Positions 26,081 through 48,301 of a stretch of 64,000 nt of DNA are shown here, piece after piece. The DNA lies in NCBI GenBank assembly GCA_964566795.1, contig CAZMIU010000001.1:333091-397090 (forward strand), given 5' to 3'. Each line of letters starts with the position of its first letter. The stretch's first letter is position 1. The notes below the pieces were generated by a model that was given only the letters and a program-made list of their open reading frames with translations, did no database searches and was not told where the DNA came from. Source of the stretch: an uncultured Candidatus Saccharibacteria bacterium (lineage in GTDB: Bacteria > Patescibacteriota > Minisyncoccia > Phycocordibacterales > SBAW01). Made by a program: the position numbers and the translations under genes.

Positions 26081-26114
26081 ATACAGGATTGACAGGTCTG
26101 GCATTAATGGTCAT

Positions 26115-29962: not shown

Positions 29963-29978
29963 ATTGTTATTTTAATTT

Positions 29979-32829: not shown

Positions 32830-32886
32830 AATTTCAATTTTGTGGTGACTCTATATTTCTTCGCCTTGTTCCTGTTACCCACGTAC

Positions 32887-33093: not shown

Positions 33094-33096
33094 ACT

Positions 33097-33948
33097 TTAT
33101 TGTTGTGCAGATAATGTTGCTACTTTGGCTTCGCTCGATTGCGTTAGCTGTTGTTCAAACTCCTTAAGAAGGAAGAGGCTTATGTCGTCCATCGTGTCGT
33201 GACCCTGCCGGAACGGTTTCTCTATGGCGCGAATAAGCTGCCTGATATAGAGAAGCAGGTAGGATATGAACCCCAGGAGCACTACCGACTCGGGCGACCC
33301 TTCAGTCTGGACGAACAAGAGAAGGAACACGATGCCGAGCGCAAGCGATTCAGCCAGTACGTGAGCAGAAGGCAGGAATTGCGTTCTCTGGATGTGGTAG
33401 ACCCTTAGCACGCTTCGGCGCAGAGCCGCTTGTTCTCCCTCAAGACGGACAATGTAATTGGGGGGCATGTCGAGCTTTTCCATCTGAGCATAAGACTCTG
33501 AAAGCTCGTTAACCGACGCGATGCATGGCTCAAGCTTATAATGGTCGCCCTCATGTCCAAGTCCTTTGATAAAACTACGTACGATTGCTACTATCCTCTC
33601 TCGCATCTTTACCAAGTCAAATTCTTTTTTGTCACGGCTAAAGAACTTGCCCTCTTCCCAAATATTCTCAAGCGATGAGCGCATATCGGCTGGTATCTTT
33701 TCAGCCTCCTTGTAGTCAGCGATAATACCCGCAAGTAAGAAGCCGACGATGAATATTGCTCCCGCTATTGCGCTCGAGAACAGCGCATTGAGGGAGAAGA
33801 CCTCTACACCCCATGTATGGATGAGGAACTTCGCCCCCATGATTACAGTGACGATCGCTAGCGTCCATATGCTGATCTTTAGTTTCTTAAGCATGCGGTG
33901 GTCATGGGCACAATACTTAGTAGTTAACGTAGTATTTAACTTTTGCAT
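33097..33948 (-). CDS. Membrane protein (hypothetical) with four TM helices and a central soluble region.
   Basis: Hydrophobic segments sit at the N- and C-termini. No recognised domain. Confidence 0.4.
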   Translation of the reverse strand: MQKLNTTLTTKYCAHDHRMLKKLKISIWTLAIVTVIMGAKFLIHTWGVEVFSLNALFSSAIAGAIFIVGFLLAGIIADYKEAEKIPADMRSSLENIWEEGKFFSRDKKEFDLVKMRERIVAIVRSFIKGLGHEGDHYKLEPCIASVNELSESYAQMEKLDMPPNYIVRLEGEQAALRRSVLRVYHIQRTQFLPSAHVLAESLALGIVFLLLFVQTEGSPESVVLLGFISYLLLYIRQLIRAIEKPFRQGHDTMDDISLFLLKEFEQQLTQSSEAKVATLSAQQ

Positions 33949-34537
33949 TCGCCGTCAGTTCAGCAACCCATTTTTGTGCCTCTTGCTGCAACTTTTGCTC
34001 CCTTAGCTGCTCATTAATCTGAGCCTTGAACTCCTCCATTTTCGTACCGGCTGGAGGTGTCGCCTTGGTGTCTTTTATGTACGCCTCCACCTCATCTGCA
34101 GAAACTGAAACCTTATCGCCCAAAAGTTTTTCTAGCTTCTTTTGGATGGTAATTTGCTCTCGCAAGTCTTCCTCGGTCATGCCCTGGGCAGCAAGGGCCT
34201 GTTCAAGGGTACTCCCCTGACCTGCAACTTCTGCTTCAAGTTTCTTTATCTCAGCCTCAATCTCTTCTGGAGCTAGAGTCACTTTTTGCTTATTAAGTTC
34301 GTTCTCGACTAGTCGTTTATTTATCATTGCGTCCAAGGCCTGCTTGCCGGATTGTTTTTCCAGTTCACCAATAACAGCTAAGCGGCTTATTGGGCTGCCA
34401 TTTACTGTCACCGCTACGAAGAGACCCCTAGCAAAGAACAACCCCGCAGCAAGAAGAACGACCGCTGCCACGATGACAACAACCAGTGGCTTGGGCTTTT
34501 TTAACTTTAGGCTTATGTAGTTTGAATTATTTTCCAT
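33917..34537 (-). CDS. SurA N-terminal-domain-like periplasmic chaperone, with no PPIase domain.
   Basis: TM anchor, then AVTVNGSPISRLAVIGELEKQSGKQALDAMINKRLVENE, a SurA_N-like chaperone pattern. Confidence 0.45.
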   Translation of the reverse strand: MENNSNYISLKLKKPKPLVVVIVAAVVLLAAGLFFARGLFVAVTVNGSPISRLAVIGELEKQSGKQALDAMINKRLVENELNKQKVTLAPEEIEAEIKKLEAEVAGQGSTLEQALAAQGMTEEDLREQITIQKKLEKLLGDKVSVSADEVEAYIKDTKATPPAGTKMEEFKAQINEQLREQKLQQEAQKWVAELTANAKVKYYVNY

Positions 34538-34559
34538 AGTGATTTATATAGTTATTTTT

Positions 34560-35129
34560 TTACCCATTTACCAGTACGCTGCGCTTCAGGGTAAGATGCG
34601 CAAAACCTGCAAACATCAACATGCTCCCAAACACCATGATTCCCATGAAAGGGATGGTTGCAAACCCATACACGAGAATTGGCGAGTCGGTGCAGGCAGG
34701 CATGAGCCCTCCATAGGAACATGGCAACGAGAGCTTGTTACCGAGCACGAAGCCTTGGAAGTGGTAGTAGTAATGGTAGATCGCGTACCACAACCCGAAC
34801 GCAGAGAGGATAGCCACAGTTATGTGCGTCTCGCGGGTTTTGTACCACAGTGCGACTAAGGTTATTACACTCGTCGGATACAGGAATATCCGCTGCCACC
34901 AGCACAGCTCGCATACTGGGGTGTCGTACACCAACTGATAGACAAGAGAACCTGCTATAGAGATGCATGCAATTGCGGCCAACGCTGCAATAAACCAGAA
35001 GTACGGTACGCGCTGTATGCGGGCCCGTACGCCGACTGACAACCAATACAATATCCCTACAGCCACGAGCGCGACAAAGAGTCCTATCGATCCAGAAACC
35101 AGAAGTGTGGAATAGGTATCGAGTGTCAT
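34560..35129 (-). CDS. dsbB: Disulfide bond formation protein B-like.
   Basis: Four TM helices. The first periplasmic CxxC sits in a ...CELCWWQR context, which is DsbB-like. A second Cys pair is LPCSYGGLMPAC. Confidence 0.65.
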   Translation of the reverse strand: MTLDTYSTLLVSGSIGLFVALVAVGILYWLSVGVRARIQRVPYFWFIAALAAIACISIAGSLVYQLVYDTPVCELCWWQRIFLYPTSVITLVALWYKTRETHITVAILSAFGLWYAIYHYYYHFQGFVLGNKLSLPCSYGGLMPACTDSPILVYGFATIPFMGIMVFGSMLMFAGFAHLTLKRSVLVNG

Positions 35130-35132
35130 ACT

Positions 35133-35804
35133 CTATTGATTTACGGGGGCGGATGTACTGACTTTTGCCTTAATAAGCGCTTTGAACGGCTCATAGCCCT
35201 GCGGGTTCTGTATCTTTTCTCCATTGAGGAAGAAAGTCGGCGTACCGCTGTTGCCGAGCTTTTTACCTGAGTCAATATCGCGCTGCACTCGGGCAGCAAC
35301 CTCTGGCGAAGCGACATCTTGTTTGAACTTCTCCATATCAAGCCCGAGCTGCTTAGCATAGTCCTCAAACACGGCCGGTGTCGAAGTATTCTTCTCTCCC
35401 CATTTCTCCTGTTCGGTAAACAATAGGTCGTGCATTTCTGTGTACTTGTTTTGTCGCGCAGCGGCCTCAACGGCAAGTGCGGCAGTCATGCCATTTTTGT
35501 GTCCGGGAAGTGGAAAATATCGGCGCACTACCCTAAGATCATTCGGGAATTCCTGCTCAAGCTGTTTGACGAGCGGAAAATACGCGCCGCACGCCTCACA
35601 CTCGAAGTCGAGGTACTCGATGAGCGTTGCTTTTGCGCTTGTAGACCCGACCACATAATCATCGACGACAACCGTAAGCAAGTCATTGGGCGGTACCTCT
35701 TTTTTCTGAGACCCGGGGACAACAAGCCACACAAGGCCTATGACTACGACTATCGCTAGGACAATCCACTTCACAAACTTGGTATTTGGTTTAGTTTGAT
35801 CCAT
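35133..35804 (-). CDS. DsbA-family thiol:disulfide oxidoreductase, membrane-anchored.
   Basis: Thioredoxin fold with active site FECEACG, and a cis-Pro region. Confidence 0.75.
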   Translation of the reverse strand: MDQTKPNTKFVKWIVLAIVVVIGLVWLVVPGSQKKEVPPNDLLTVVVDDYVVGSTSAKATLIEYLDFECEACGAYFPLVKQLEQEFPNDLRVVRRYFPLPGHKNGMTAALAVEAAARQNKYTEMHDLLFTEQEKWGEKNTSTPAVFEDYAKQLGLDMEKFKQDVASPEVAARVQRDIDSGKKLGNSGTPTFFLNGEKIQNPQGYEPFKALIKAKVSTSAPVNQ

Positions 35805-35932
35805 ACAGTAATTGATTTTTAGAAGATAAACGGAAAGACATGCGCTGCTCTACCCTAGACCCTGGTAATGGAGCCATATCACTGATGCCATGATCGCCGC
35901 CATAATTGAACCGGTTACGATGTAGCTCATTA

Positions 35933-36650
35933 TTAATTCCCAGCCAGAGCTTTATCAACCAGCTGCTTTACGTTTGCGTACGGCTGAGCGCCAGAGAGCG
36001 GGTACTTCTTTCCGTCCTTGCCCACCACAATGCTCCAGGGCGTGCCTTGACCCCCGGTTGCGGTTGCATTAGCAACCTCGTCTTCAATATGCTTATCGAA
36101 CTTGCCGCTCGTGAGGCATGAATTGAATTTAGCAACATCGAGCCCGACATATTGCGCAATTTTAGGAAGCTCTGCGGCATCGAGTCCGTCATTAGATGGC
36201 GTAACCTCGTATACACGGTCTGCATAGGCCCAAAATTTGTCATTGCCACCTTGGTCGCCTGCACACTCAAGCGCTACTGCCTCATTGCGTGCCTTGGCAT
36301 GGAGCGAATCAAGCGGGAAATGGCGGTATATCCACGCGACTTGCGAACCATACGTGCTCACAACCTGCTTCATGGTGTTATGGAACTGCTTGCAGAAGGG
36401 GCACTCGGTGTCGGAGTACTCGACTACCTTGACCGGAGCGTTTATATCGCCTCGAATATGGTCGCTTGCGGTAACTGCAGTCATTGCCTCCAGATCACCT
36501 GTAGGCTGTGCCGGGACCTGTCCTTGCGGCTGAACAACTGCAGCAGGCCCAGGGAGACGGCTACTGAATAGTATTGCTCCGGCAATGATGATGCCGGTGA
36601 TGATAATGGCAACGGAGGGCGATATTTTATTTTGTAGTGATTCCATGTTT
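35933..36650 (-). CDS. Second DsbA-family thiol:disulfide oxidoreductase.
   Basis: Active site TECPFCKQF. TM anchor from start MESLQNKISPSVAIIITGIIIAG, with the ATG at 36650. Confidence 0.7.
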
Positions 36651-36710
36651 TTGGACCATAGGGAAAGCGAATAAACGCCGGACACACCGGCAGCCTTAGA
36701 GAAAAGCTGA

Positions 36711-37118
36711 TTAGAATGCCCGAGAATTAAGTATGCCCCGAGCGTAGGCTTCTTGGAGCACTGTGCGTGAAGATAGCGGCGGATATGAAAAGGCTCCAAC
36801 TAGAGCAATCGACAGCGGCGAAACAAGGGCTTCTTTTCTAAAAGCTCCTACAAGTACAACCGCGAGAAAAAGGAAAGAAATTAGAAAAAGGACGTCTGCT
36901 GGTGGGAGCGCGACGAACATGCTTTGTATTTCTTGAATATGCTCTATTGGATTTACTTGGCAAAGAGCCGCTGCATGGCTAGGCATAAAGGGACAGTTGC
37001 CCGTCTTCCCTCCCATGGAGCCCATCCCGAAATAGGCAGACCCAAGGGATGGAAGCAAAAGTAGCACCAGTACCGCTAGCAATAGACCGGCTTTTCTCCA
37101 TGGAACGGCGAAGGGCAT
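36711..37118 (-). CDS. Secreted/membrane hypothetical protein with a CxxxxxxxxxC pair.
   Basis: Signal peptide, GNCPFMPSHAAALC, and a C-terminal TM helix. Confidence 0.35.
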   Translation of the reverse strand: MPFAVPWRKAGLLLAVLVLLLLPSLGSAYFGMGSMGGKTGNCPFMPSHAAALCQVNPIEHIQEIQSMFVALPPADVLFLISFLFLAVVLVGAFRKEALVSPLSIALVGAFSYPPLSSRTVLQEAYARGILNSRAF

Positions 37119-37435
37119 ACCTATACCTTACCAGATATTTTTACTTGGCGTATTTTATCAAACGCTTGCTTCGACCTCTGAAATGTGGTCAAAAACTGAC
37201 TTATCCACAGTCCTTAACTTCTCTTCCCCTAAGGGGAGTTACTAGGTTTTTTACGCAACAATAGGATTACTTCCTGAAGTCATGGGTTGTGCGCCCATAT
37301 CTGCCTTGGTAGGGTTTATAGGACGGTCATGAAGGATTGATGAAATGGCTCAACAGAGCCATTTTTCTCACAAAAGGCTGAAATACCGTTAAAAATAGGC
37401 TTATAAGACTCTTTAGAAAAATTTCTCCTCCGAGG

Positions 37436-38455
37436 TTGAAAGTACCGGAGAAGTTCAAAACTCCCACGCTGCGCGTTGCCCTACTGGGCGGCTGTCTTTT
37501 GGTCGTCCCCGCCTTTCTATCTTTTGCCGGTATTCATTCATCGGTATTTATTAGCGCAAATGCCGCCAAAGCGGGCTATACGGCTTCTCAACACAACTCT
37601 CAAACAATACCGGTACTCATGGCTGCCAACAATATAGATCCAAATCCCTCGGTAGGAGGAGGCGACATTTTAATTAGCGGAAGTGCGTTAATGCCTCAAG
37701 GTGGAGCTTCTAATAGCGACGCGGATCAAGACAGACATGCCGGATCCTCGCAGATAAACGTCTATATCGTACGCGAAGGAGATACCCTGAGCGATATAGC
37801 AGAAATGTTCGATGTGTCGGTAAACACCATTGCTTGGGGCAATGACATCAAGGGCAGGGTCATTAAACCGGGCCAGGAGCTTGTAATCCTTCCCGTAACC
37901 GGCGTCCAACACACGGTCCAAAAAGGAGACACAATCGCCTCTCTGGCTAAAAAGTACAGCGCCGATGCGTCAGAGATAGCGCATTTCAACGAACTTGCTA
38001 CCGACGCGTCCTTGGCCGTTGGGACCGTCATAACGGTACCAGATGGCGCACTACCGGCCCCAACGGCCAAAAGCGCGTCTAGCCGCGCTGGAGGGCTCTC
38101 AGGGGCTGGTGGCTACTACGGATGGCCGCTGAGCGGAGGGGTCATTACGCAAGGTATCCATGGATACAATGCGCTCGACATAGGGGCCAGTAACGGAACG
38201 GATATTTATGCCTCGGCTGGAGGTACTGTGGTTATCGCCCGCAACGGCGGCTGGAACGGCGGCTACGGCAACTATGTGGTTATAAAGCATAGTAATGGCA
38301 CCCAAACCCTTTATGCGCACGCGAGCCAGGTATTAACATCGGCTGGTGCGCGAGTAGAAAAAGGCGATCTCATCGCCTTGGTGGGATCGACCGGCAAGTC
38401 TACGGGCAATCATTTGCACTTTGAGGTTCGCGGCGCGACAAATCCTTTCAGATAA
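37436..38455 (+). CDS. Cell-wall hydrolase with two LysM domains and an M23 metallopeptidase domain.
   Basis: LysM 1: YIVREGDTLSDIAEMFDVSVNTIAWGNDI. LysM 2: HTVQKGDTIASLAKKYSADASEIAHFNEL. M23: HGYNALDIGA...YGNYVVIKHSNG...GNHLHFEV. A TTG start is inferred. Confidence 0.8.
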   Translation: MKVPEKFKTPTLRVALLGGCLLVVPAFLSFAGIHSSVFISANAAKAGYTASQHNSQTIPVLMAANNIDPNPSVGGGDILISGSALMPQGGASNSDADQDRHAGSSQINVYIVREGDTLSDIAEMFDVSVNTIAWGNDIKGRVIKPGQELVILPVTGVQHTVQKGDTIASLAKKYSADASEIAHFNELATDASLAVGTVITVPDGALPAPTAKSASSRAGGLSGAGGYYGWPLSGGVITQGIHGYNALDIGASNGTDIYASAGGTVVIARNGGWNGGYGNYVVIKHSNGTQTLYAHASQVLTSAGARVEKGDLIALVGSTGKSTGNHLHFEVRGATNPFR

Positions 38456-38460
38456 CTTTC

Positions 38461-39246
38461 TTAATGGGACGTCTTGACAGCATGAGACTCACTGCCATGA
38501 GGCTCTTCAATTGCGATTTTTATAAATGCCAACGTAAGAATGGCGAATACGGCCGCCTGCAAAAGGCCGATAAATGCTTCGAATGCCATAAGTGGCACCG
38601 GCAAGAAATACGGCACGAAGAGCGTGACTATCATCAATAAAATCTCCCCGGCGAATATAGCGCCGAAGAGCCGAAACGAAAATGAAATAAGTCGGGCAAA
38701 GTTACCGATAATTTCCAGCAATCCAACCGCAAAGCCTATAAAGCCGTTCGAGAAATTAATGAATTTTGAACCGTATTTCCAGAGCCCCAGTGTAAGTATG
38801 CCGCTTAGTTCGATTACAAGAAATGAAATCATGGCAAGAGCCAGAGTCGTATTGAGGTCCGCATTTACAGGACGAAATAGCGGTGTGAGCGAGCTTTTAC
38901 CCTCACTCACATGTTCAAGACCTATCGTACCGAAAATGGGCAGGAAATTGAAAGTGTTAGCAATGAATATAAAAATAAATATGGTGACTATAAACGGAAA
39001 ATAGCGCAGAGCCAGCTGTCGACTGCCAAGAGTCTGCTCTATCAATCCAAGTACATACTCAAAAAACATTTCTACGGCGCTTTGGATTCTCCCTGGCACG
39101 ACCGACACTTTGCGGCCAATAATAAAAGCTACCAGTAGTATGCCCGCCATGACAATCCATGTAGTAAGGAGCGAATTGGTAACAGGAAAGCCCCAGATAT
39201 CAAAAATCTTCTCCGAGGCAAGGGCGATATGTAATCCTTCTTCCAT
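38461..39246 (-). CDS. atpB: F0F1 ATP synthase subunit a, an orphan copy.
   Basis: Conserved essential Arg in ARLISFSFRLFGAIFAGEILL, and C-terminal EAFIGLLQAAVFAILTLAFI. Five to six TM helices. Confidence 0.7.
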   Translation of the reverse strand: MEEGLHIALASEKIFDIWGFPVTNSLLTTWIVMAGILLVAFIIGRKVSVVPGRIQSAVEMFFEYVLGLIEQTLGSRQLALRYFPFIVTIFIFIFIANTFNFLPIFGTIGLEHVSEGKSSLTPLFRPVNADLNTTLALAMISFLVIELSGILTLGLWKYGSKFINFSNGFIGFAVGLLEIIGNFARLISFSFRLFGAIFAGEILLMIVTLFVPYFLPVPLMAFEAFIGLLQAAVFAILTLAFIKIAIEEPHGSESHAVKTSH

Positions 39247-39313
39247 TTAGGAGGTTAATTTAACATACTGAAAGGAATACTGAAACTCTAAATGTAGTGC
39301 ATTAAAACCGCAC

Positions 39314-39913
39314 TCATTGGGAATAGACTCCGACAAAAACCGCCGAAACGATAAAACGATCTTCTTTTGCACCTAGCGTGTTGCATGTTACCAGCTTTAG
39401 ATATGTACCATCTTGTGGCATGGAAATTGTATCTACGGTTGCGTTTGCAGTCTCGACCCCGGTCACGCGATAGCGATACTCACGAGTATCTGAGTAGACG
39501 TTGATAGTGTCGCCCTCTTCTAGCTCTTGGATATCATTAAACGCCTTGTAGGCTTGATTGCGTACGATTGGCAAAGAAGTCGAGTGCCCGAGTAAAACTA
39601 CGGTACCCTTAGTGCCTAACTGTGCAGACGTGGGATACCGTATTGCGCCTTTTAGCAGTGCCGCATTTAGCACATCGAGATCAGTGCTTGTGCGGTTTTC
39701 TACTGTCACATCAAGTTTTATCTTTGATGCAGTAACCCGTATTGGATCCTCAGGAATTACAGACGGGCCAGTTTCTTTAACAGACGGACTTTCTGGAATC
39801 GGAGTAACGAGAGTGGGTTCCGGTAAGGCGTCAACCGCACTGAGAAATATAAAAGTAAGCCCAAAGAGCGCCGTGAATGTAAATACGAAGGCAAAAAAAC
39901 GCTTTCCCATCAT
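39314..39913 (-). CDS. Sortase-family transpeptidase.
   Basis: Catalytic His in VVLLGHST, a Cys in the LVTCNT (TLxTC) motif, and a conserved Arg downstream. Confidence 0.75.
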   Translation of the reverse strand: MMGKRFFAFVFTFTALFGLTFIFLSAVDALPEPTLVTPIPESPSVKETGPSVIPEDPIRVTASKIKLDVTVENRTSTDLDVLNAALLKGAIRYPTSAQLGTKGTVVLLGHSTSLPIVRNQAYKAFNDIQELEEGDTINVYSDTREYRYRVTGVETANATVDTISMPQDGTYLKLVTCNTLGAKEDRFIVSAVFVGVYSQ

Positions 39914-40248
39914 AAGAGTATATTACACACCACTTGCAGGGTCTTGATAGCTCCCCTACTAACTCGTATTTGCTACTGCATGCTTTTTGTCAGAAACAGG
40001 TTCGTCTACCCAAGAGCCGTCAAGGATGTCCCATTGTGTACGAAAATGTCACCCGGCTTATGGGTCACTTTCTTGTATACCAGAAAACTGACGAGCAGTC
40101 CGACCAAAATCAAGCTGAGGATGATGTATTTGTAAGGCATGGTAATTTGTTAGCGGTATTTACCATATCGCGTTATGCCTCTTCCTTCGCGATCAGGATG
40201 CGTTCTTTCAGAGATAGTTAATTCCCCAACCAAACATAAGGTGACATC

Positions 40249-40452
40249 TTAACCGCGCTTGCTTGTCCACGCACGTACATGGGCAACGAGACCGAATATA
40301 ACCAATATCCACGCTATGACGACAGGGAAAAACGCATTACCGGCAAGATAGTCCTGCAGCAAGACGGCTATACCAAAGCCGAGCGCCGTATGGCTGGCAT
40401 TAGACAGGAGTATATGACGGCGGTCAAACTTCATCGCTTCTTTTATAGACAT
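40249..40452 (-). CDS. Small two-TM membrane protein (hypothetical).
   Basis: 67 aa, hydrophobic. Confidence 0.3.
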   Translation of the reverse strand: MSIKEAMKFDRRHILLSNASHTALGFGIAVLLQDYLAGNAFFPVVIAWILVIFGLVAHVRAWTSKRG

Positions 40453-40606
40453 ATAGTTTTATTCATTAATGGTTTGATAATACATCACTAAAATTGTAAC
40501 ATCCTCATTAACAGGGAGGCCTCGCCCCCTGTTCCGAAACTCGTGAATAAAGGCGGAAACCGGAGCGGGAAGGACGATTTCAAGTTTTCTTTGACGGCCA
40601 CTAACC

Positions 40607-41827
40607 TCAGTGCCCGCCTCCACTTTCTATTTTTCCGTCAAAAATCGTGGGGTCTGCCTCTCCCTCTACGCGCAAAAGTCCCCACGCGCCGCGGTCGAGT
40701 CGGGCAAGCGCATGGTCGACAAGCATATAATTTCCGGGGTAGTCGGCTTTGAACTCAACCACCGCGGCACCGCCGGCGGGAATGAGGGTCGTCTGTATGC
40801 TTCGCGCAGGAGGACTCACAATATCTCCCTCGCGATATACGCGGTCAAATATCTCCCCGATTACATGAAAGCTTGAAATGAGATTGACGCCGCCGTTTCC
40901 TACGTAGAGGCGGACGGTCTCCCCGACTTTGACATTCATGTTGTTCTGCAATGCTCCTGTTTTTCCGTTAAAGACTATGTATTGCGGCTTCCCGTCGAGC
41001 ATCGCTTGTGCGTCAAACAACTGCAGTCCCTTTCGACCCAATTCCCCGGATGTATAAAACTCTCCCTGCATCACGTAAAACTCTTTATCGACCGGAGGCA
41101 ACCCTTCTTTTGGCTCGATGAGAATGAGCCCATAGAGTCCGTGCGCCATATGACTCGGCACATTAGGATGAGCACAATGGTATACGTACAAGCCGGGATT
41201 AAGCGCTTTGAAACGGAATGTTTTTGATTCTCCTGGGGCGACGTTCGTCGCAGGTGCTCCGCCGCCTGGCCCATTAACCGCATGTAAATCAATGTTATGC
41301 ATATGGAGGCTCGTCTTGTCGTTATGAAGCGTCAATTCGACCGTGTCGCCCTCGCGAGCTCTCAAAAACGGCCCCGGCACGGTGCCGTTGAACGTCCAGT
41401 AGTTGAGAGTGACCCCGGGAGCAATTTCAGAGATGACTTCTTTTGTGGTAAGTTCCATTTTGACCGTCTGCGGTTCCGAGCGATTAATTGGCGGTGGAAT
41501 GTCCGCGGGATTTTTTGCTATGTCGGGAACTCGCTCGAAGGAACCGAAATTCCTGAAGAACTGAAGTACATTTTTGAAAGGAAGAACGGGGCCTTCGCTC
41601 GGGCCGAACGTTTTAAGAGAAAAAGGATACTGAAAAGCGTTTGGTATTCCGTTTGGAACGTAAAATGCAAGAGAAACCCCGACAAATATTGCCACAAGCG
41701 CCGCGGTAAGCTTCCACGAATGGAACTGACGGAGCACGAGAAAAATGAAAAGAGCCGCAAAAAAATACGCAATAGCAAGACCGAATGCCTGCACGATGTA
41801 TTGCCAAAGGTAAGAAAGTAGTTCCAT
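40607..41827 (-). CDS. nirK: Copper-containing nitrite reductase (NirK-type two-domain multicopper protein) with N-terminal TM helices.
   Basis: LHNDKTSLHMHNIDLHAVNGPGGG (T2Cu His) and YVYHCAHPNVPSHMAHGLYGLILIEP (T1Cu Cys/His/Met). An N-terminal 60-aa hydrophobic anchor. Confidence 0.8.
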   Translation of the reverse strand: MELLSYLWQYIVQAFGLAIAYFFAALFIFLVLRQFHSWKLTAALVAIFVGVSLAFYVPNGIPNAFQYPFSLKTFGPSEGPVLPFKNVLQFFRNFGSFERVPDIAKNPADIPPPINRSEPQTVKMELTTKEVISEIAPGVTLNYWTFNGTVPGPFLRAREGDTVELTLHNDKTSLHMHNIDLHAVNGPGGGAPATNVAPGESKTFRFKALNPGLYVYHCAHPNVPSHMAHGLYGLILIEPKEGLPPVDKEFYVMQGEFYTSGELGRKGLQLFDAQAMLDGKPQYIVFNGKTGALQNNMNVKVGETVRLYVGNGGVNLISSFHVIGEIFDRVYREGDIVSPPARSIQTTLIPAGGAAVVEFKADYPGNYMLVDHALARLDRGAWGLLRVEGEADPTIFDGKIESGGGH

Positions 41828-41842
41828 AGACTGATTAGATTA

Positions 41843-42420
41843 TCATAACAAATCTCCATTGGGACACCTAATCCTTTGGCAATCTTGGCGACCGTTTGCC
41901 ATGGCGCGCAGTGACGTTTCAAGAATTTCCTTTCCATGATTAACGATTATTGAGATATGTCCTTCGTTGGGATAGAACGTTACTTTTGCGCCGGTGAATT
42001 GTTTTATCAATTCTCGCATCTCCGCCTCTTTAACTTGATTATCAAGTGCGCCATGCCACACTTGTATTTTTGACGCATCGATATTCGAAATGTAAATCCC
42101 CAGGTACGTTGTCCTATGAGCATACCGTCATAGGCCGCACCTTTTGCGCCTTGGCGCACGCTTTCAGCGAGCGAAGCTACCATGATTTGGAGCGTATCGG
42201 AACCTTCCAATGCTTTTCTGTCCGGTTCTACCCAGCGGCTTGAGGCGCGTTCCAATAATCGCTTTGCTTTCTCCTCGGTGTTAAACGTATTTTTTGTCAT
42301 CGGAAGCATAATCCACGGCACCCATCGCGCGAGAAAAGAAACAAGTCGGGTTGTCCGCCCAACACCCGATACGACACCGCACCGCGTTATCGGGTGCGGG
42401 ATTTGATACATGCAAGCCAA
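41843..42420 (-). pseudogene. Disrupted alpha/beta-hydrolase C-terminal fragment. Two overlapping ORFs sit in different frames and the N-terminal nucleophile region is missing.
   Basis: ORFs 42007..42420 and 41843..42061 together encode ...AYDGMLIGQRTWGF...KVTFYPNEGHISI, the His region of the catalytic triad. There is no GxSxG. Confidence 0.4.
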
Positions 42421-42429
42421 CGAGCCATA

Positions 42430-42972
42430 TTACACAGCTCCCCGTCTCAGCCTCCACATTCCCCACCACGCTGCTGGTGCAAGTACTATCACACTCGCCA
42501 TACCTGGGAAGTAGCCATACGGTTCTGGAGTTAGGAGCGGAAGGAAAAAGTGTGCGAGTTCGGTAACGCCCATTGCTGTAAAGAAAGTCCAAGCCAAATA
42601 GTATCCAAAGGAATATTCGCGACTGACGAAATACGGGATCAGGAGCCATGCGGCAGCAAGCGTGTACAGCAGGATTATGAGAAAGCTCGCTTCCGGCACA
42701 GGAACTCCGGTTATCTCCGAAAGTCGCGGAAAGAAATCCATCTCCCGTTCCTCTATCTTGTGGAGTACAAAGAAAGAGAGTGTGAGGAAGTACGGAATCT
42801 TTATGGAAGCAAAAGAAGCCTTGGTTGGGATAAGGAGCCAAAGAATGAGTCCACCGAGAAATCCGAATACGAAGAGGAATGCGGGCAGTAGACCCAGCAT
42901 GACGTAGCCGAGCGCTACTACGGCAATAGTGAACATGACCGCAAAAGCCATTGTAGAAACACTTCTTTTCAT
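42430..42972 (-). CDS. HXXEE-domain membrane protein.
   Basis: LHKIEEREMDFF gives H-x-x-E-E within a multi-TM protein. Confidence 0.55.
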   Translation of the reverse strand: MKRSVSTMAFAVMFTIAVVALGYVMLGLLPAFLFVFGFLGGLILWLLIPTKASFASIKIPYFLTLSFFVLHKIEEREMDFFPRLSEITGVPVPEASFLIILLYTLAAAWLLIPYFVSREYSFGYYLAWTFFTAMGVTELAHFFLPLLTPEPYGYFPGMASVIVLAPAAWWGMWRLRRGAV

Positions 42973-43007
42973 GGGTATATCTTACACCTTGTCATAGGCA
43001 TTACCGA

Positions 43008-43065
43008 CGCGTCTCGGGCGCGATAACCTAGCACGAGTTGGTTGCGACTCCTGAACGAAGTTCGA
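43008..43065. repeat. Left att-like direct repeat: a 28-bp exact core plus a degenerate copy of the tRNA-Gln 3' end.
   Basis: gcgtctcgggcgcgataacctagcacga at 43008-43035 is identical to 48197-48224. The following 30 bp resemble the tRNA-Gln 3' part. Confidence 0.6.
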
Positions 43066-43119
43066 ACTATTGCAATGTCCGGAAACACCGTATTTAGCCG
43101 CGTAACGGTTACAGATTAA

Positions 43120-43518
43120 TTAACTGACCTTGATCTGAAAATTATACATCCCCATACCACATACTCCCTGCACCTTATCTCCCGATTTTGGAGTACCTAA
43201 ATCTATTTCCTCCTCACCGGTTGGTTGCAATATCTTCTGAAAACCAACAGAACGGACCACGAGCGACGCTGAGCAATCATATGTACCATCTGTCTTCACA
43301 ATCAATTTGGTAGGTACTCCGCCTTTAATTTCCGTGATGCGCGGAGAATAACCGCCCTTTGCAGTCACAGTCACATACTGCACACCGTCTCTAACCTCGA
43401 CATTCTGTGATTGCGCGACTTCGTCGCCTGAAGACGCCGATCTATCAGAAACAAAGTAGAGAGTACCTCCAATGAGGGCAATACTGAGGATAATGGATAT
43501 GACTGTGTTTTTTTGCAT
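43120..43518 (-). CDS. Membrane-anchored cupredoxin-like (Cupredoxin_1) protein.
   Basis: TM anchor, then a beta-rich domain with YDCSASL and GVCGMGM (Cys/Met copper-site-like). It is a paralogue-like match to the gene at 6953-7453. Confidence 0.5.
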   Translation of the reverse strand: MQKNTVISIILSIALIGGTLYFVSDRSASSGDEVAQSQNVEVRDGVQYVTVTAKGGYSPRITEIKGGVPTKLIVKTDGTYDCSASLVVRSVGFQKILQPTGEEEIDLGTPKSGDKVQGVCGMGMYNFQIKVS

Positions 43519-43534
43519 AGATTAACTAATAAGA

Positions 43535-44542
43535 TTATATGTTAAATAAAGGATCAATAATACCGAGCCCTGCAAGTCCTGCGAGGAGCGCGAAAGCTCC
43601 GAGGCCAATTACCAAAACACCTGCCGATTTGAAGAAAAGTGGCGCGTGTCTTGATTGTGCGAATGAGGCAGAGCCGAACGACAGAAGCGCGAGCATTGGT
43701 AGCGTGCCTAGGGCAAACGCTGTCATGATCAAGAACCCCGAGAGAAAGGAACCACTTGAAAGTGCCGCAACTTGCATCGCTTGAGTAAATCCGCACGGCA
43801 AGAAGAAAGTCCCAACACCGACCAAAAACGGCGCTATGGTCTTATGCTCCATCTTACGGAAGAAGCTAAAGACTCCAGAAGGTAGCGCAATCATATTTTT
43901 CTCAAAAATTCCTACCAGATTAAGCCCGAGTACAATCATCACCACCGATGCGATGATCCCGAGGATTGCGGTAGCGGTAAAACTGATACCAACTGCACTT
44001 CCGATGGCACCAAGCACACCGCCAAGCACAGCAAAACTGATTAGTCGGCCTCCGTGAAAGAGCATCATCGGCTTTACATCGCTTATCTTGTCCTGGGACA
44101 CCGTTGCAGAAAGCGAGAGGACAAGCCCTCCAACGACCGCAAGACAGCTCGAGACGGAAGCAATGAGACCGATGATAAAACTCGTAACTGGGGTTACTGT
44201 TCCTCCCAGGCCGAAATTCAGAATCCCTGACTTTTGGACAATGAAAAAGAGAGCCAGAAGTGCTAAGCCAATAGGCAAGGCTTGCCAAATGACGCCAGTA
44301 TCCTTTTTCTCCCTAGTTTTCTTCTCAACCGAAAGTGAATAGCCGTTGTGTTTTATCTTTTCGGTCAAAACCTCCGCGAGTTTTTGCTGACTGTCATCAA
44401 GACTTGTGTCAAAAGAAACTGTCTCTTGTTTTAGGTTGACGTACGCATTCTCAATACCCATATGTTCATTGAGAACGTCCTCAATGAGGATTTTACATGA
44501 AGCGCAGTGGATGCCAGAAACGTGAAATGTAAGTGTTTTCAT
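43535..44542 (-). CDS. HMA-domain fused to a multi-TM permease, TauE/SafE- or DsbD-like.
   Basis: N-terminal GIHCASCK (GMxCxxC metal-binding), then about 7 TM helices with FLPCGF. Confidence 0.55.
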   Translation of the reverse strand: MKTLTFHVSGIHCASCKILIEDVLNEHMGIENAYVNLKQETVSFDTSLDDSQQKLAEVLTEKIKHNGYSLSVEKKTREKKDTGVIWQALPIGLALLALFFIVQKSGILNFGLGGTVTPVTSFIIGLIASVSSCLAVVGGLVLSLSATVSQDKISDVKPMMLFHGGRLISFAVLGGVLGAIGSAVGISFTATAILGIIASVVMIVLGLNLVGIFEKNMIALPSGVFSFFRKMEHKTIAPFLVGVGTFFLPCGFTQAMQVAALSSGSFLSGFLIMTAFALGTLPMLALLSFGSASFAQSRHAPLFFKSAGVLVIGLGAFALLAGLAGLGIIDPLFNI

Positions 44543-44558
44543 AAACCGCTTTGCTGAG

Positions 44559-44780
44559 TTAGAGTGTCTCGCCGCGCTTTTCCAGCATCATGTGATGAAT
44601 TGTTGCGATTTGAAGCCAGGTTGCAATAAGGATAAGTATGCCGGCACAGAGTAGAGCGTCGATTTTAGTAACACCCAATACGGAATTGTCAGCTCCTCCG
44701 AAGACTGCGGCTAAAAATGAAATCACTCCAATCAAACCGACCGCAACACTGGCGACATGCATTACTTTTGATAGTTTCAT
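44559..44780 (-). CDS. Small two-TM membrane protein.
   Basis: 73 aa, hydrophobic. It sits inside the copper operon. Confidence 0.3.
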   Translation of the reverse strand: MKLSKVMHVASVAVGLIGVISFLAAVFGGADNSVLGVTKIDALLCAGILILIATWLQIATIHHMMLEKRGETL

Positions 44781-44810
44781 ATATTTTAGGTTTAATTATT
44801 TTTAATAAGT

Positions 44811-45425
44811 TTATTTGTACCACTGCACATACCACGACTGCATCTGCTGTATCTCCTCTGACTGTGAGGAAATGATATTTTTTGCAAGCTGTTGCATTTC
44901 AGGTCGATTGGTCCCTGATTGGAGCATATTCGCCATCATAATCGCCAGCTGATGATGAGGGATCATTTGTTCAATAAAAGCCTTATCGAAATCAGATGCG
45001 TTTTCCAGTGCAGTCATGTCTTCCTGTCCACCCATATGCATTCCGCCTTGCGACATCATGCCGCCACTCATCATGCCCGTGCTTACCTTTGGCACAGTGC
45101 TTCCGAACCAATCCTTATACCAGCCGTTCATATCTTGAATCTCTGCTGTCTGGGCTGCAATGATAGCTGTTGCTAAGGTTTTAATCTCTGGACGCTTTGC
45201 CTTTTGGAGCGCGAGGTTTGCCATAGCGATTGCACCGTCATGATGAGGAATCATTTGCTCGATGAAATGTTTGTCGATTGTGTTGGCAACTTGAGTGTTT
45301 CCATTTTCCCAATTCATCATTCCAGATCCTCCATATCGCATCATCGGAGTGAAGACTGAGACCAAGAGAATTCCAAGGACTATTCCTCCGATACCGTATA
45401 CTATTTTGTTGTTTTGATTGTTCAT
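44811..45425 (-). CDS. DUF305-domain protein associated with copper resistance.
   Basis: A tandem repeat of FIEQMIPHH...AI.MAN, with Met/Gly-rich linkers. Confidence 0.75.
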   Translation of the reverse strand: MNNQNNKIVYGIGGIVLGILLVSVFTPMMRYGGSGMMNWENGNTQVANTIDKHFIEQMIPHHDGAIAMANLALQKAKRPEIKTLATAIIAAQTAEIQDMNGWYKDWFGSTVPKVSTGMMSGGMMSQGGMHMGGQEDMTALENASDFDKAFIEQMIPHHQLAIMMANMLQSGTNRPEMQQLAKNIISSQSEEIQQMQSWYVQWYK

Positions 45426-45458
45426 ATATTTTTATTAAAATTAATTTGATAATTTTGC

Positions 45459-47753
45459 TTACAATCGTTTGGCTTTGATTCTAAGCGAATTCGACACTAC
45501 GGATACTGACGACATTGCCATAGCAAAACCTGCAAAGACAGGGTTCAAGAGCCACCCAAATACCGGATATAAAGCCCCAGCCGCAAGAGGAATGCCTACA
45601 ATATTGTAGATGAATGCCCAGAAGAGATTCTGCTTGATGCCGCGCATAGTGATCTTTGAAAGTTTGATCGCCTTTACAAGCTTCGAAATATCGCCACCAA
45701 GAAGGGTGATACCCGCCGATTCGATGGCAACATCGGTCCCGGTCCCCATGGCAATTCCCACATCTGCCTGTGCAAGTGCTGGTGCATCGTTTACGCCGTC
45801 ACCCGCCATGGCGACTATCTTGCCTTGCGACTGGAGTTCCTTAATTTTATTGAGCTTATCCTCTGGGAGTACGTGAGCCATCACCTCATCAATCCCCACG
45901 AGTGATGCGATGTACTTTGCCGCTCTTTCGTCATCTCCCGTGAGCATAACCACCTGTATGCCGAGCTTGTGAAGATTCTTTACGGCCTCGACTGACTCCG
46001 CTTTTATCTCATCAGCAACCATAACGAACCCGAGTACTTTTTCTCTAGTAGCGAGAATGACTGGGGTCTTTCCTTGCAAGGTAAATTCATTAAGTCTAGC
46101 GACATCAAATGGAAGTTTGAGATCGCTTACGAGCTTTACATTACCAACAAAATACTCATCGGTATCAATAACCCCGCGCAAACCCTTGCCTTGTATCCCC
46201 TCAAAATCGGAAACGCTCGACAATGGGATATTTTTCTCTTGTGCGTACTGTACAATCGCGTGCGCAATCGGATGCTCTGACTTCTTCTCAAGCGATGCGA
46301 GAATTGATACAAGGGCATCATCTTTTAAATCTGAGAGATTCTGTATATCGACTAGGGTGGGTTTGCCTTTAGTGATCGTTCCTGTTTTATCAACCACAAC
46401 CGTATTCACCTTGTGGAGTTTCTCAAGCGTAGCGGCATCTTTAATGAGAATACCTTCTTTGGCCCCCTTACCGACTCCTACGATAATTGCCGTCGGTGTT
46501 GCGAGTCCGAGCGCGCACGGGCACGCAATTACGAGAATTCCCACAAAGGATACAAGGCCGAATGACAAGGCCTGAGAGAACCCAAGATACTGCGACCCAA
46601 CGATAAGCCATGCTCCGAGAGTAAGAAAAGCGATTACGAGAACGATGGGCACAAATACCGCCGATATTTTATCCGCAAGTGCTTGTATGGGGGCACGACT
46701 TCCTTGAGCATCTTCAACCATCTTGATAATCTGGGCGAGGAGTGTTTCTGATCCAACTTTGGTGGCCTTGAATGTGAAGGAACCACTGGTATTGATTGTC
46801 CCGGACACGACATTGTCACCAAGCTTTTTCTGGGCTGGCATCGGCTCACCGGTAACCATAGATTCGTCGACGAAGGAACTTCCCTCGGTAATAACGCCAT
46901 CGACAGGGATCTTTGCTCCGGGCTTAACGATAATAAGATCGCCATGTTTAACATCGTTTACTGAAATTTCCAATTCTCTTCCTTCACGGATAACTAACGC
47001 CGTTTTGGCCTGAAGATTAAGAAGTTTCTCAATGGCATCACCTGTCTTTATCTTTGATCGCGCCTCGAGATATTTTCCAAGCGTAATAAATGTAATGACT
47101 ACGATTGTCACGTCGTAGTACTGGTAGTCAACGTTTATAAATGGACGAAGAACATCCTCAAAAGCACTGACTGCAAAACTGTATAAAAAGGCTGCAACCG
47201 TGCCGATGCCGATAAGCGTATCCATGTTCGCCTTGCCATAGCGGAGGAATCTATAAAAACCGAGAAGATAGGGTTTGCCAACGACAAACAAAATGTATGT
47301 GGCAAGTATTGGAAGCAGGTGATGAAAAAATTCTTTGAGCGTATAGCTCATTGCGGGAGCGATACTGTATTCAGCGAGTATGTCCCAGCCCATGACAAAG
47401 GCGGCGAAAACGGCGATGGGAATAGCTGATAGCACTTTTATTCGCATATCCGCTACTTCCGCTAGCTTTTCTTTCTTGGACTGGTTGAGACCCAGGTGTG
47501 ACGCGTGTTCACTTGGAGACATCCCCATTTCTTCGGCACTAGTCGGAACTTCTAGGGAATATCCGAGTGGTTCAATATGCTTGGAAAGGTCATGAGGATT
47601 TGTTTTTGATGGATCAAAAGAAACCTTTGCTTTTTCTGTACCATAATTAACTTCCGCGGAATGTACGCCCTCCACCTTCTTAAAAGTCTTCTCGATTACC
47701 GAGGAGCACGAGGCACAATGCATTCCTTTGACTCTGTATGTTTGTGTATGCAT
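45459..47753 (-). CDS. copA: Copper-translocating P1B-type ATPase.
   Basis: N-terminal HMA domain ([13 protein letters not shown]), CPC in [28 protein letters not shown]. 764 aa. Confidence 0.9.
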
Positions 47754-47754
47754 A

Positions 47755-48030
47755 TTATTTCCTCTTAAGCTTATACACCTTAATGATCTCCGCCTTTGCT
47801 TTAGCGGTCTGTCCAGTTTTCATCTGATGGTGGACGCAGTGATCAAGATGGTTTTCAAGAAGCAAATCCTCGACGTTAGATAGCCCTTGCTTCACGGCGG
47901 ATGTCTGAGTAATCACATCTATGCAATAGGTATCATTTTCAACCATCTTTTGAAGACCTCGAACTTGTCCCTCAAGCAATTTGAGGCGACGAACAACCTT
48001 TGCCTTATTTTTATCGTCCATGTACTCCAT
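47755..48030 (-). CDS. csoR: CsoR/RcnR-family metal-sensing repressor.
   Basis: [36 protein letters not shown]...[10 protein letters not shown] carries the C-H-C copper-ligand signature. Confidence 0.8.
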
Positions 48031-48034
48031 ATGA

Positions 48035-48064
48035 ACCACTATACCCCCTAGGGGGTATAGTGGT
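48035..48064. promoter_or_regulatory. 30-bp perfect palindrome ACCACTATACCCCCTAGGGGGTATAGTGGT, a putative CsoR operator.
   Basis: Exact inverted repeat with a C5/G5 core, like known CsoR operators. It abuts the csoR start. Confidence 0.6.
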
Positions 48065-48106
48065 CAAGTATATATCTGAGTGAAATAATAAACGTCAAGC
48101 TTAAAC

Positions 48107-48136
48107 AGAAAGACCGCCCTTTCGAGCGGTCTTTCT
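48107..48136 (-). terminator. Hairpin terminator downstream of tRNA-Gln.
   Basis: AGAAAGACCGC-N8-GCGGTCTTTCT, with a T-rich tail on the minus strand. Confidence 0.45.
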
Positions 48137-48196
48137 GTCTGAATACTGCTCTCAGCAGGTATGCCTTTTCTGAATAGTGACTCGGAGATTATCTAT

Positions 48197-48226
48197 GCGT
48201 CTCGGGCGCGATAACCTAGCACGACT
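48197..48226. repeat. Right att-like direct repeat abutting the tRNA-Gln 3' end.
   Basis: The 28-bp core is identical to 43008-43035. Confidence 0.6.
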
Positions 48227-48301
48227 TGGCTGCGGGACTAGGACTCGAACCTAGATAACAACATTCAGAGTGTTGCGTCCTACCATTAGACGATCCCGCA
48301 A
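48227..48301 (-). tRNA. tRNA-Gln(CTG).
   Basis: Hand-folded: acceptor TGCGGGA/TCCCGCA; anticodon stem CAACA/TGTTG with loop CTCTGAA (anticodon CUG); T-arm CTAGG-TTCGAGT-CCTAG. The discriminator and CCA are encoded. Confidence 0.85.

Follow-up and report, generated by a model that had tools for sequence, protein, structure and literature searches.

The copper-resistance block that lies beside tRNA-Gln(CUG) in the stretch of contig CAZMIU010000001.1 analysed here (64,000 nucleotides, hereafter the window) is probably a non-autonomous layer of a composite island, dependent on the large serine recombinase (LSR) that this island encodes, and mobilisation in trans by the island LSR is the best reading of the sequences compared. 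The block, or islet, spans positions 43041 to 48228 (5.2 kb) and is the tRNA-proximal layer of a 29-kb low-GC island (19110 to 48228) inserted at the extreme 3' end of the tRNA gene, in a Candidatus Adlerbacteria-like genome of the candidate phyla radiation (CPR). The features on which the argument turns are listed below; L-numbers designate the contigs, loci or genomes used for comparison, and coordinates given without an L-number are those of the window.

48227-48300, minus strand: tRNA-Gln(CUG), intact, CCA encoded (ARAGORN; Rfam, 63.3 bits)
48188-48234, minus strand: site S1, the tRNA 3' end plus a motif of about 40 bp (28-mer at 48197-48224), read as a putative attL
43000-43068, minus strand: site S2, an internal joint made of a class-2 far arm (43041-43068) and the second motif copy (28-mer at 43009-43036)
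19110-19201, minus strand: site S3, a conserved 92-nt far-end block (nhmmer E=7e-23; alignment)
26115-27434, plus strand: LSR, 439 aa, full length, with a YARKS catalytic motif (PF00239, 8e-21; PF07508, 4e-14; PF13408, 4e-8)

The 28-mer GCGTCTCGGGCGCGATAACCTAGCACGA is present in the window as two exact copies (28/28 nucleotides) in direct orientation, at 43009-43036 and 48197-48224. No further copy was found there at up to three mismatches, by blastn-short or with an nhmmer profile; the sole extra trace in these searches was a half-copy of the motif at 19182-19200, inside the far-end block, and 100 shuffles gave no match at all. The two copies can be extended without gaps to 47 nucleotides with 89% identity (42/47; 43000-43046 against 48188-48234). 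Read in the direction of the tRNA, the right copy begins 2 nucleotides past the CCA. At the left copy the likeness to the tRNA is limited to CGCAaCCAAc (43037-43046, compared with CGCAgCCAAg at the tRNA end), and beyond these positions the alignment to the tRNA collapses, except for the T-loop-like GTTCGAAC. Both junctions were found in independent assemblies: L122 is 100% identical from 48257 down to 37120, L002 spans pyrG, the tRNA and the repeat, and L003 to L005, L086, L096, L125 and L128 span the left junction. The first-pass annotation had described an exact 28-bp repeat around the block, with a degenerate copy of the tRNA 3' portion at its left end and the intact tRNA at its right end, and had seen in this the footprint of an integration into tRNA-Gln. 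The precise alignment that it called for bears out the two copies and the intact tRNA 3' end 2 nucleotides from the right one, with the left coordinates shifted by one (43009-43036, not 43008-43035); the degenerate tRNA portion shrinks to some 10 nucleotides and the T-loop-like sequence; and the repeats are indeed of att type, although the 28-mer was not copied from the target tRNA: it lies 3' of the CCA and is borne by the element. As a side observation, contig L001 ends at the equivalent of 48231 and L122 starts at that of 48257 (both from SRR14271372), a break inside the 3' part of tRNA-Gln with a 27-nt overlap. This is consistent with a graph branch, hence with population heterogeneity, at the integration point; it is not evidence for an empty site.

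The 28-mer is the core of a site of about 40 bp, CCAA-S-TCGTGCTAGGTTATCGCGCNCGAGACGCGT (S being G or C), that we found in about 30 contigs of Parcubacteria (CPR). A pattern scan of metagenomes with CCAASTCGTGCTAGGTTATC returned 25 contigs, and in all 25 the 15 nucleotides beyond the pattern, GCGCNCGAGACGCGT, were conserved as well. The full site sits where a tRNA (Gln-CUG, Gln-UUG or Ser-GCU) or a module end meets the next module: it follows an intact tRNA-Gln(CUG) in L087, L088, L092, L099, L102 and genome L007, and an intact tRNA-Gln(UUG) in L094, L103 and L106, while the remaining copies are preceded by degenerate arms with ...CAGC as their last bases. It is at the site that gene content changes from contig to contig: the tRNA and the site are followed by module X in L102, the same site and module X stand behind the end of another module (Y) in L090, and this same Y end leads through the site into a third module (Z) in L108. 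Likewise, tRNA(UUG), site and module W are contiguous in L106, and tRNA(CUG), site, a 1.65-kb unit V of three small ORFs (open reading frames), a far block, a further site and W follow one another in L095. Copper and Dsb modules are directly behind the site in L088, L099, L102 and L108. Whole LSR islands occupy the same position: in L112 the island (LSR 82% identical) lies between the site at tRNA-Ser(GCU) and a far block with another site, and in L116 and L120 the order is tRNA-Gln(UUG), site, LSR island. L094 brings the motif and leader of the window type to tRNA-Gln(UUG), the 110 nucleotides past the CCA being identical save one base (variable position S). The CsoR of L094 has 97.9% amino acid identity, copA is present, and the DNA is 89.6% identical over 932 nucleotides. 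More generally, the tRNA-side end is conserved as the site, about 25 nucleotides, a hairpin GCATACCTGCTGAGAGCAGTATYCAG and a terminator in S1 of the window, L094, L098, L116, L120 and L054, and in L140 this leader alone fills the 119 nucleotides between tRNA-Gln and the LSR stop codon. An exact 19-mer scan of IMG/VR for a free or phage form gave no match. In the contigs compared, the repeat is conserved at junctions in many genomes, and the 28-mer is apparently the conserved tRNA-side arm of an island family, at three different tRNAs. The alternative that would have undone the first-pass annotation, a dispersed multi-copy sequence unrelated to the islet boundaries, does not describe it: the 28-mer is multi-copy across genomes, with half-copies also within the conserved 92-nt far-end block, and all full copies examined mark either the end of a tRNA or the boundary of a module.

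Two other repeats were seen at tRNA-Gln ends. An 84-nt direct repeat (95%) in L038 (12050-12133 and 14440-14523) starts at the 3' end of tRNA-Gln(UUG) and encloses just one gene, whose product is a cytochrome d1/nirS-like haem protein carrying a cytochrome b5 domain; this is a one-gene cassette at the same hotspot, with a diverged version of the motif. L062 carries a perfect 86-nt inverted repeat (12339-12424 and 13958-14043) that begins within the final bases of tRNA-Gln and encloses the gene of a serine recombinase related at 39%; the segment is invertible, or else the repeat is an artefact of assembly.

The opposite end of the family is equally well defined. S3 opens with a motif half-copy, GCGCTCAGGACGCGTCGT, and closes with ...GAGACGGCCAGC, after which native DNA begins; the general form of the far block is GCGCTCGAGACGCGTCGT..TAAAAT..GCTAWTCCGCCTTGCAGGGCTTGACCGACCACGGTTCTAACTCGAGACGGCCAGC, and, wherever enough flank was available, it stands to the left of the LSR. 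Similarity stops right after ...GGCCAGC at the far ends of nine islands (that of the window and eight others). Past this point we found unrelated native DNA in the window, L115 to L117, L119 and L120, and CAAS plus the site in L112, L095 and L101, which indicates a further putative element in tandem. The far ends share only ...CAGC (about 4 nucleotides) with tRNA flanks of the empty type; the exchanged segment must therefore be very short, which, from what is known of the mechanisms, fits a serine and not a tyrosine enzyme. Mini-islands that have both family ends and no recombinase were also found, namely unit V of L095 and a unit of about 2.4 kb in L167. Copies or part-copies of the far-end block stand in tandem at the far side of the islands in L119 (1323-1384, 2858-2930 and 3663-3754) and in L167 (407-459 and 3091-3180), and this suggests repeated rounds of insertion and decay.

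Base composition and synteny agree on the limits of the island. Between about 19 and 48.3 kb the GC content falls to 0.42-0.51, from 0.55-0.60 on both sides. The pyrG gene beside the tRNA has its best match (77% identity) in Candidatus Adlerbacteria/Parcubacteria, and the order pyrG, tRNA-Gln recurs in related Adlerbacteria. In L016 tRNA-Gln is directly followed by homologues of the window genes at 11.8-14 kb, and in L024 by a homologue of the window ORF at 18.5-19.1 kb; these two genomes show the empty target at the genus level (pyrG, tRNA-Gln, native genes), with neither island nor motif, and the L016 sequence past ...CGCAGC is unrelated to the motif. Synteny across the tRNA in L016 and L024 therefore puts the insertion at about 29 kb, of which the islet is the tRNA-proximal 5.2 kb.

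The LSR is the only recombinase among the window ORFs scanned against Pfam. With 439 aa it has the length of its homologues at 100% coverage, and its N-terminus (...LYARKSTEQDE...) is common to all relatives. At least 8000 homologues were found at E<=1e-30, the best 120 clusters being 76-93% identical; its conservation exceeds that of pyrG, and the few homologues with a named source are mostly from Parcubacteria or Paceibacterota. In the ten related LSR contexts that were read, the order is ParB-methylase, small helix-turn-helix (HTH)/terminase-like gene, large terminase-like gene or remnant (not in all), small reverse ORF, LSR. Among the IMG/VR relatives (44-77% identity) a convergent tRNA (Gln, Ser, Asp, Glu or Asn) lies past the LSR stop in at least 12 of 38 loci, at distances from 115 nucleotides to about 4.3 kb and below 150 nucleotides in four; the type-I motif was not found in these IMG/VR loci, despite the tRNAs alongside. 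Each clade of the enzyme has its own site. Clade I (window, L112, L116, L120 and L167; 77-83% identical) goes with the type-I motif described above, clade II (L077 and L140; 82% mutual identity, about 62% to clade I) with type II, CAYATGCTAAGTCARGWGACTGA, and clade III (L138 and L144, with L133 related at 64-66%) with type III, GACAATTTWTTATCGG. As judged from these loci, the type of post-tRNA site co-varies with the LSR clade. A search for an integrase partner had been recommended, with the serine recombinase at 26115 as one candidate acting in trans, and this enzyme proves to be the sole recombinase both in the window ORFs scanned and in the gene tables and Pfam scans of related islands. Being the only one seen, having relatives with tRNAs alongside and co-varying with the sites, the LSR is the most plausible enzyme for these sites.

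The block between S2 and S1 contains six ORFs, all on the minus strand, none of which has a recombinase domain (Pfam).

48105-48187, minus strand: proximal leader of the family-typical kind, with spacer, hairpin GGCATACCTGCTGAGAGCAGTATTCAGA (48138-48165) and intrinsic terminator (48105-48138)
48040-48059: perfect 20-bp palindrome TATACCCCCTAGGGGGTATA just upstream of csoR, candidate CsoR operator
47755-48039, minus strand: csoR, metal-sensing repressor (PF02583, 1.2e-24)
45459-47753, minus strand: copA-type P1B ATPase with an N-terminal HMA domain (PF00122, PF00702, PF00403)
44811-45425, minus strand: DUF305 protein (PF03713, 1.3e-46)
44559-44780, minus strand: orf73, no family, conserved within the islet
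43535-44542, minus strand: HMA + DsbD_2 membrane protein (Pfam)
43120-43518, minus strand: cupredoxin-like protein, last gene of the islet (PF13473; identical protein on 13 contigs)

With a CsoR, an HMA-P1B ATPase and a palindrome in front, the block has what is expected of a CsoR-regulated cop operon, copper specificity being predicted. The GC-rich palindrome TATACCCCCTAGGGGGTATA is a candidate operator by analogy with CsoR systems in general. The leader has a fold z-score of -4.3, which it owes to the terminator; covariation is absent from the hairpin, and neither motif nor leader matches an Rfam family at E<=10. The first-pass annotation had called the block a self-contained, recombinase-less copper module with its own repressor and operator, bounded on both sides. 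The genes are as it described them, the palindrome does lie upstream of csoR (as an operator it is a candidate) and the module does end at recombination sites; as a bounded unit, however, it is only the tRNA-proximal 5.2 kb of 29 kb of inserted DNA.

We then considered the internal joint S2. In its far arm, GTTCGAAC stands 27 nucleotides before the junction and the arm ends in ...GGAGTCGCAAC. This class-2 arm, with GTTCNNAC exactly 27 nucleotides before the junction (26 in L089), is common to L089, L093, L104, L105 and L109, and immediately behind S2 comes an LSR island that has the family ends. Elsewhere the islet, or part of it, was found in other surroundings, although no full second copy was seen. 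In L123 and L124, from two other samples, it is present at 99.3-99.6% identity up to ...GTCGCAGCCAACTCGT and then meets a different right-hand neighbour, a gene for a cation diffusion facilitator (CDF) transporter replacing orf180 through the multicopper oxidase; cargo shared further on is only 95.7-96.8% identical. In L094 the leader, csoR and copA are at tRNA-Gln(UUG). The comparison with L123 and L124 shows apparent partner swapping at S2, and the islet's own leader and terminator, this swap and the occurrence at another tRNA favour the view that it is a separable unit. The alternative offered at first, a decayed element whose integrase was lost, is not favoured: no tyrosine recombinase was found in the window or in the related ORFs with Pfam scans or precomputed Pfam labels, and small recombinase-less modules with the same ends recur (L095, L167).

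Taken together, these data can be accommodated in the following scheme. The LSR would recombine an element site, in which a far arm ...CNCGAGACGGCCAGC runs into the near arm CAAS-TCGTGCTAGGTTATCGCGCNCGAGACGCGT, with the tRNA end. Crossover would take place at or next to the CA closing the acceptor stem (...CGCAGC/CAAG, the slash marking a boundary between 48229 and 48228). In the reconstructed element site, this non-palindromic CA, in GGC-CA-GCC, is the centre of the best dyad (13/26 positions, a weak symmetry), which is suggestive only. The element would supply the discriminator G, the CCA and the motif of about 40 bp, the tRNA would stay intact and the far arm would end beside native DNA; a supply of G, CCA and motif by the element would explain why the motif always follows an encoded CCA. 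S1 would then be an attL whose tRNA-side arm (P') was imported by the element, and the 28-mer would be this near arm, with one copy beside the tRNA (S1) and the other within the island (S2). A far arm followed by a near arm, as in S2, is what would be expected if a second element entered the tRNA-side site of a resident one (tandem accretion). The copper block, with its own terminator, promoter and operator, would be the latest layer added and would use the island LSR in trans, as pseudo-SCC (staphylococcal cassette chromosome), ACME (arginine catabolic mobile element) and COMER (copper and mercury resistance) elements use the CcrAB of a neighbouring SCCmec. The scheme predicts the sequences of four joints. 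An islet circle would read ...GGAGTCGCAAC/CAAGTCGTGC...ATAGATAATC, also written ...TTCAGGAGTCGCAAC/CAAGTCGTGCTAGG...GACGCATAGATAATC; the islet-free site, tRNA ...GTCCCGCAGC/CAA(G/C)TCGTGC...GACGCGTCGGTAATGCC; a circle of the whole island, ...CCCGAGACGGCCAGC/CAAGTCGTGC...; and the empty chromosome, ...GTCCCGCAGC/AAAGGTATGACT. The action of the LSR on these sites, the crossover position and the present mobility of the islet are all deduced from sequence comparison, and the cognate relation of LSR and islet sites we infer from the co-variation of clade and site.

Several observations weigh against this scheme, and some of them belong equally to the account that competes most directly with it, namely that S2 is a remnant left by an ancient tandem insertion or by recombination of two related islands, that the copper block is now fixed cargo of the 29-kb LSR island, and that its only ways of moving are together with the entire island or through homologous recombination among islands that have flanks in common. 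We consider this account rather unlikely. In its favour, the S1-S3 interval has a canonical near end (S1) and a canonical far end (S3), in L088 and L117 the orthologous cop modules are ordinary internal cargo that runs on into Dsb and sortase genes with no internal site, and the S2 junction is unvarying in nine contigs of the same population. Of the two breakpoints of the replacement in L123 and L124, one is 8 nucleotides past the junction (11-12 nucleotides past the proposed CA crossover) and the right-hand one falls at a gene start that has no site; that exchange therefore looks homologous or illegitimate. Against the scheme itself, the far arm of S2 belongs to the shorter class-2 type, in place of the canonical 92-nt block, and the cupredoxin gene lies upstream of orf180 in every contig that has the latter. 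As to the search for an empty site or a circular form that had been recommended, L016 and L024 provide genus-level empty sites, and neither a circular joint of the islet nor an empty site of the same strain was found in the contigs compared. Moreover, textbook serine integrases recombine attP with attB and not attP with attL, and tandem entry would therefore need a relaxed choice of sites, as in Ccr. The weak dyad symmetry of the element site also counts against the scheme, and L111, whose LSR is 84% identical and which has metal-resistance cargo to its right, has no detectable motif or tRNA within 10 kb; it is an island variant with a different or lost near end. What speaks against a mere relic is that the 28-mer of S2 is intact and identical to that of S1 while older joints deeper in the cargo are gone, that the class-2 arm recurs at its fixed 27-nt spacing in five other elements, that the islet is 99.3-99.6% identical between lineages against about 96% for the neighbouring cargo, and that L094 has leader, csoR and copA beside a different tRNA.

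The remaining explanations fare less well than the trans-mobilised layer. A classical tRNA island, inserted by a tyrosine integrase that the islet no longer has or that is supplied from another part of the genome, would account for a target at a tRNA 3' end and for a block flanked by direct repeats, and by inspection the motif can be written as 9-7-9, CTCGTGCTA GGTTATC GCGCACGAG, the core format of tyrosine recombinases. It is nevertheless very unlikely: no Phage_integrase-type protein was found in the window ORFs scanned, nor in those of related loci that were scanned or had precomputed Pfam labels; only about 10 nucleotides of the tRNA are duplicated, the rest of the repeat being 3' of the CCA; the segment shared at eight far ends, about 4 nucleotides, is too short for the 6-8-bp overlap known for these enzymes; and the site type follows the LSR clade. 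The 28-mer could also be a functional DNA or RNA element (a hairpin in the tRNA 3' trailer, or an operator or UP-element for the outward promoter often found behind it), which would serve two transcription units and hence occur in two copies. This would fit the 7-bp inverted repeat that the 28-mer contains, the promoters of the form GTCGTTTAG..N..TATAAT-like behind many copies, the co-linearity of the S1 copy with a hairpin and a terminator, and the TAAAAT box that follows a half-copy in the far block. To this reading we give only a slight probability, as compensatory changes in the hairpin are absent (the N position is A, T or C against an unchanged partner, and L112 and L116 alter one arm only), Rfam returned no match, full copies always stand behind a tRNA end or a pseudo-arm ending in CAGC, and they lie exactly at gene-content switches between genomes. 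The roles of functional element and of recombination site are not mutually exclusive. As for a chance repeat or an assembly artefact, the empty result of the 100 shuffles, the presence of both junctions in independent assemblies and the conservation across genomes leave it a negligible probability.

Other readings of the motif were tried and rejected. Read as a Xer/dif-like 11-6-11 site, the 28-mer has arms that match by hand at 5/11 positions only. The 9-7-9 tyrosine core is formally possible, and no tyrosine recombinase was found in the ORFs scanned. The motif is not a native tRNA flank: the sequence past ...CAGC is unrelated in L016 and in most relatives compared, and the motif type follows the recombinase clade. 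For an integron cassette array, no tyrosine recombinase was found in these ORFs and, by inspection, the motif is without RYYYAAC/GTTRRRY ends.

The rest of the island consists of a phage- or satellite-like backbone around the LSR and of cargo on either side.

19206-22216, minus strand: left-hand cargo, DUF559-like (19206-19556) and SMC/AAA-like ATPase (19607-22216)
22555-23838, plus strand: ParB-N6/N4 methylase (Pfam)
23825-24256, plus strand: small HTH/terminase-small-like protein (Pfam)
25296-25423, minus strand: LOOT RNA (Rfam RF03000, 70.7 bits)
27428-42972, minus strand: older island cargo, including orf180, orf137 and orf72 (Pfam, low GC)
27428-28078, minus strand: PAP2-like (Pfam)
28079-29962, minus strand: second P-type ATPase (Pfam)
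29979-32829, minus strand: cytochrome oxidase subunits I/III/IV (Pfam)
34560-36799, minus strand: two DsbA and DsbB (Pfam)
37436-38455, plus strand: M23/LysM peptidase (Pfam)
38461-39246, minus strand: ATP-synt_A-like (Pfam)
39314-39913, minus strand: sortase (Pfam)
40607-41827, minus strand: multicopper oxidase (Pfam)

The order ParB-methylase, small terminase-like gene is kept in L077, L112 to L116 and L119 to L121. LOOT RNA lies just upstream of the LSR gene, on the opposite strand, in seven of the seven related LSR loci scanned (L112, L115, L116, L117, L119, L120 and L167), about 150-290 nucleotides from the recombinase gene; it is also present in L108 (4504-4633), without a recombinase homologue. 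This RNA is not known to have an assigned organism or function, so that its context here may be informative. In the window a DUF4279 gene (25508-25984) separates LOOT RNA from the recombinase and is flanked by an imperfect direct repeat (about 66%) of about 100 nucleotides (25455-25560 and 25990-26095); related islands are empty there, and the gene looks like a small secondary insertion or duplication. The far-side cargo of related islands is defence (NACHT, CBASS (cyclic oligonucleotide-based anti-phage signalling), Thoeris TIR and restriction-modification (RM)), and the left-hand cargo of the window occupies the position of such genes in L112, L115, L117 and L120. The tRNA-side cargo is metal- or redox-related (CopA, CsoR, cupredoxin, DsbD_2, DsbA, multicopper oxidase, CDF and ribonucleotide reductase), and cargo comparable to that of the window stands next to the recombinase in L111, L112, L117 and L167. 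The island equips a CPR genome with cytochrome oxidase I/III/IV, DsbA/DsbB, a sortase and a multicopper oxidase. Such oxygen- and copper-related cargo is usually regarded as atypical for CPR. The ATP-synt_A-like gene at 38461-39246 is inverted and 68% identical in L123/L124 (L123 4739-5488), between flanks of about 96%, and forms a second variable cassette. Outside the island, the window encodes a plastocyanin/azurin-like protein (6953-7453); the ORF beside it (6576-6956) is weakly related (22-23% identity) to small ORFs of the cop modules in L088, L090, L091, L102 and L108.

Accretion of recombinase-less modules beside a serine-recombinase island is known in kind. Closest in working principle are the SCCmec composites (pseudo-SCC, ACME and COMER with CcrAB or CcrC), which share with the island an LSR, insertion at the extreme 3' end of a gene that is kept functional, short direct repeats at module boundaries, tandem accretion and recombinase-less adaptive neighbours. 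In SCC composites such neighbours are mobilised by the recombinase of the adjacent element, and COMER carries copper and mercury resistance. Unlike SCCmec, the island targets a tRNA (Gln or Ser) and not rlmH, has one recombinase gene in place of the ccrAB pair, a phage- or satellite-like backbone with ParB-methylase, terminase-like genes and LOOT RNA, a 92-nt far end and a CPR host, and it is known from sequence alone. Another parallel is the accretion of cis-mobilisable elements (CIMEs) with integrative and conjugative elements (ICEs) such as ICESt1 and ICESt3 of Streptococcus thermophilus, in which att-flanked elements devoid of recombination genes stand next to an autonomous element at the same site, in tandem, and are presumed to be mobilised either in cis or in trans. 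The islet is likewise att-flanked, recombinase-less and in tandem with a recombinase-bearing element at the same site; the CIMEs, however, rely on a tyrosine integrase that targets the 3' end of fda, a type of enzyme that the scan of the window ORFs did not reveal. With the serine-integrase prophages phiC31 and Bxb1 the island shares the three-domain recombinase, a minimal site of about 40-50 bp and, as proposed here, a non-palindromic central dinucleotide. Known examples of such prophages integrate in protein-coding genes or intergenic sites, and their attP and attB are mutually dissimilar; here, unlike in the phiC31/Bxb1 type, the target is a tRNA end and tandem arrays leave full near-arm copies in direct repeat. 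Islander-type tRNA islands have a tRNA 3' target, regenerate the tRNA with element sequence and stack in tandem (PMC4383910). The present island resembles them in these three respects and differs in that their repeat is a displaced tRNA fragment and their enzyme a tyrosine integrase, whereas here the repeat lies mostly 3' of the CCA and the enzyme is a serine recombinase. The copper operon itself is ordinary: repressor, GC-rich palindrome, HMA P1B ATPase and accessory cupredoxin and DUF305 are those of CsoR-CopA operons, with no difference in the operon, and its interest lies in the context. In the literature searched we found no description of the island family, of tRNA-end targeting by a serine recombinase, of the conserved ends or of the link with LOOT, which is a weak negative, and no paper combining CPR with serine recombinases, which is no proof of novelty; two groundwater CPR papers (PMC12455944, PMC12577380) make no mention of tRNA sites, recombinases or copper.

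At its most modest, the message is that the copper islet is a genuine site-bounded module and yet a layer of a larger composite island, ordinary in kind. More broadly, and only tentatively, we propose that an apparently undescribed LSR clade specialised for tRNA 3' ends may drive a very abundant family of phage- or satellite-like, LOOT-carrying islands in Parcubacteria and other CPR; these would regenerate the G-CCA, stack in tandem, shed recombinase-less mini-islands and provide a main route for swapping copper-resistance, Dsb, cytochrome-oxidase and anti-phage modules. The orphan LOOT RNA would gain a genomic home and a testable partner. If the proposal is true, the near arm of about 40 bp and the far arm of about 25 nucleotides would make a ready-made attP for a tRNA-Gln landing site, and the predicted short att sites would be candidates for a serine-integrase integration tool in CPR, which are hard to manipulate and for which few genetic tools are known. 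CPR have very small genomes, and how they gain tolerance to oxygen and metals is poorly known; one hotspot (the 3' ends of tRNA-Gln and tRNA-Ser) and one recombinase family appear to be what lies behind modules for copper, disulfide bonds, respiration and defence being exchanged again and again in many lineages.

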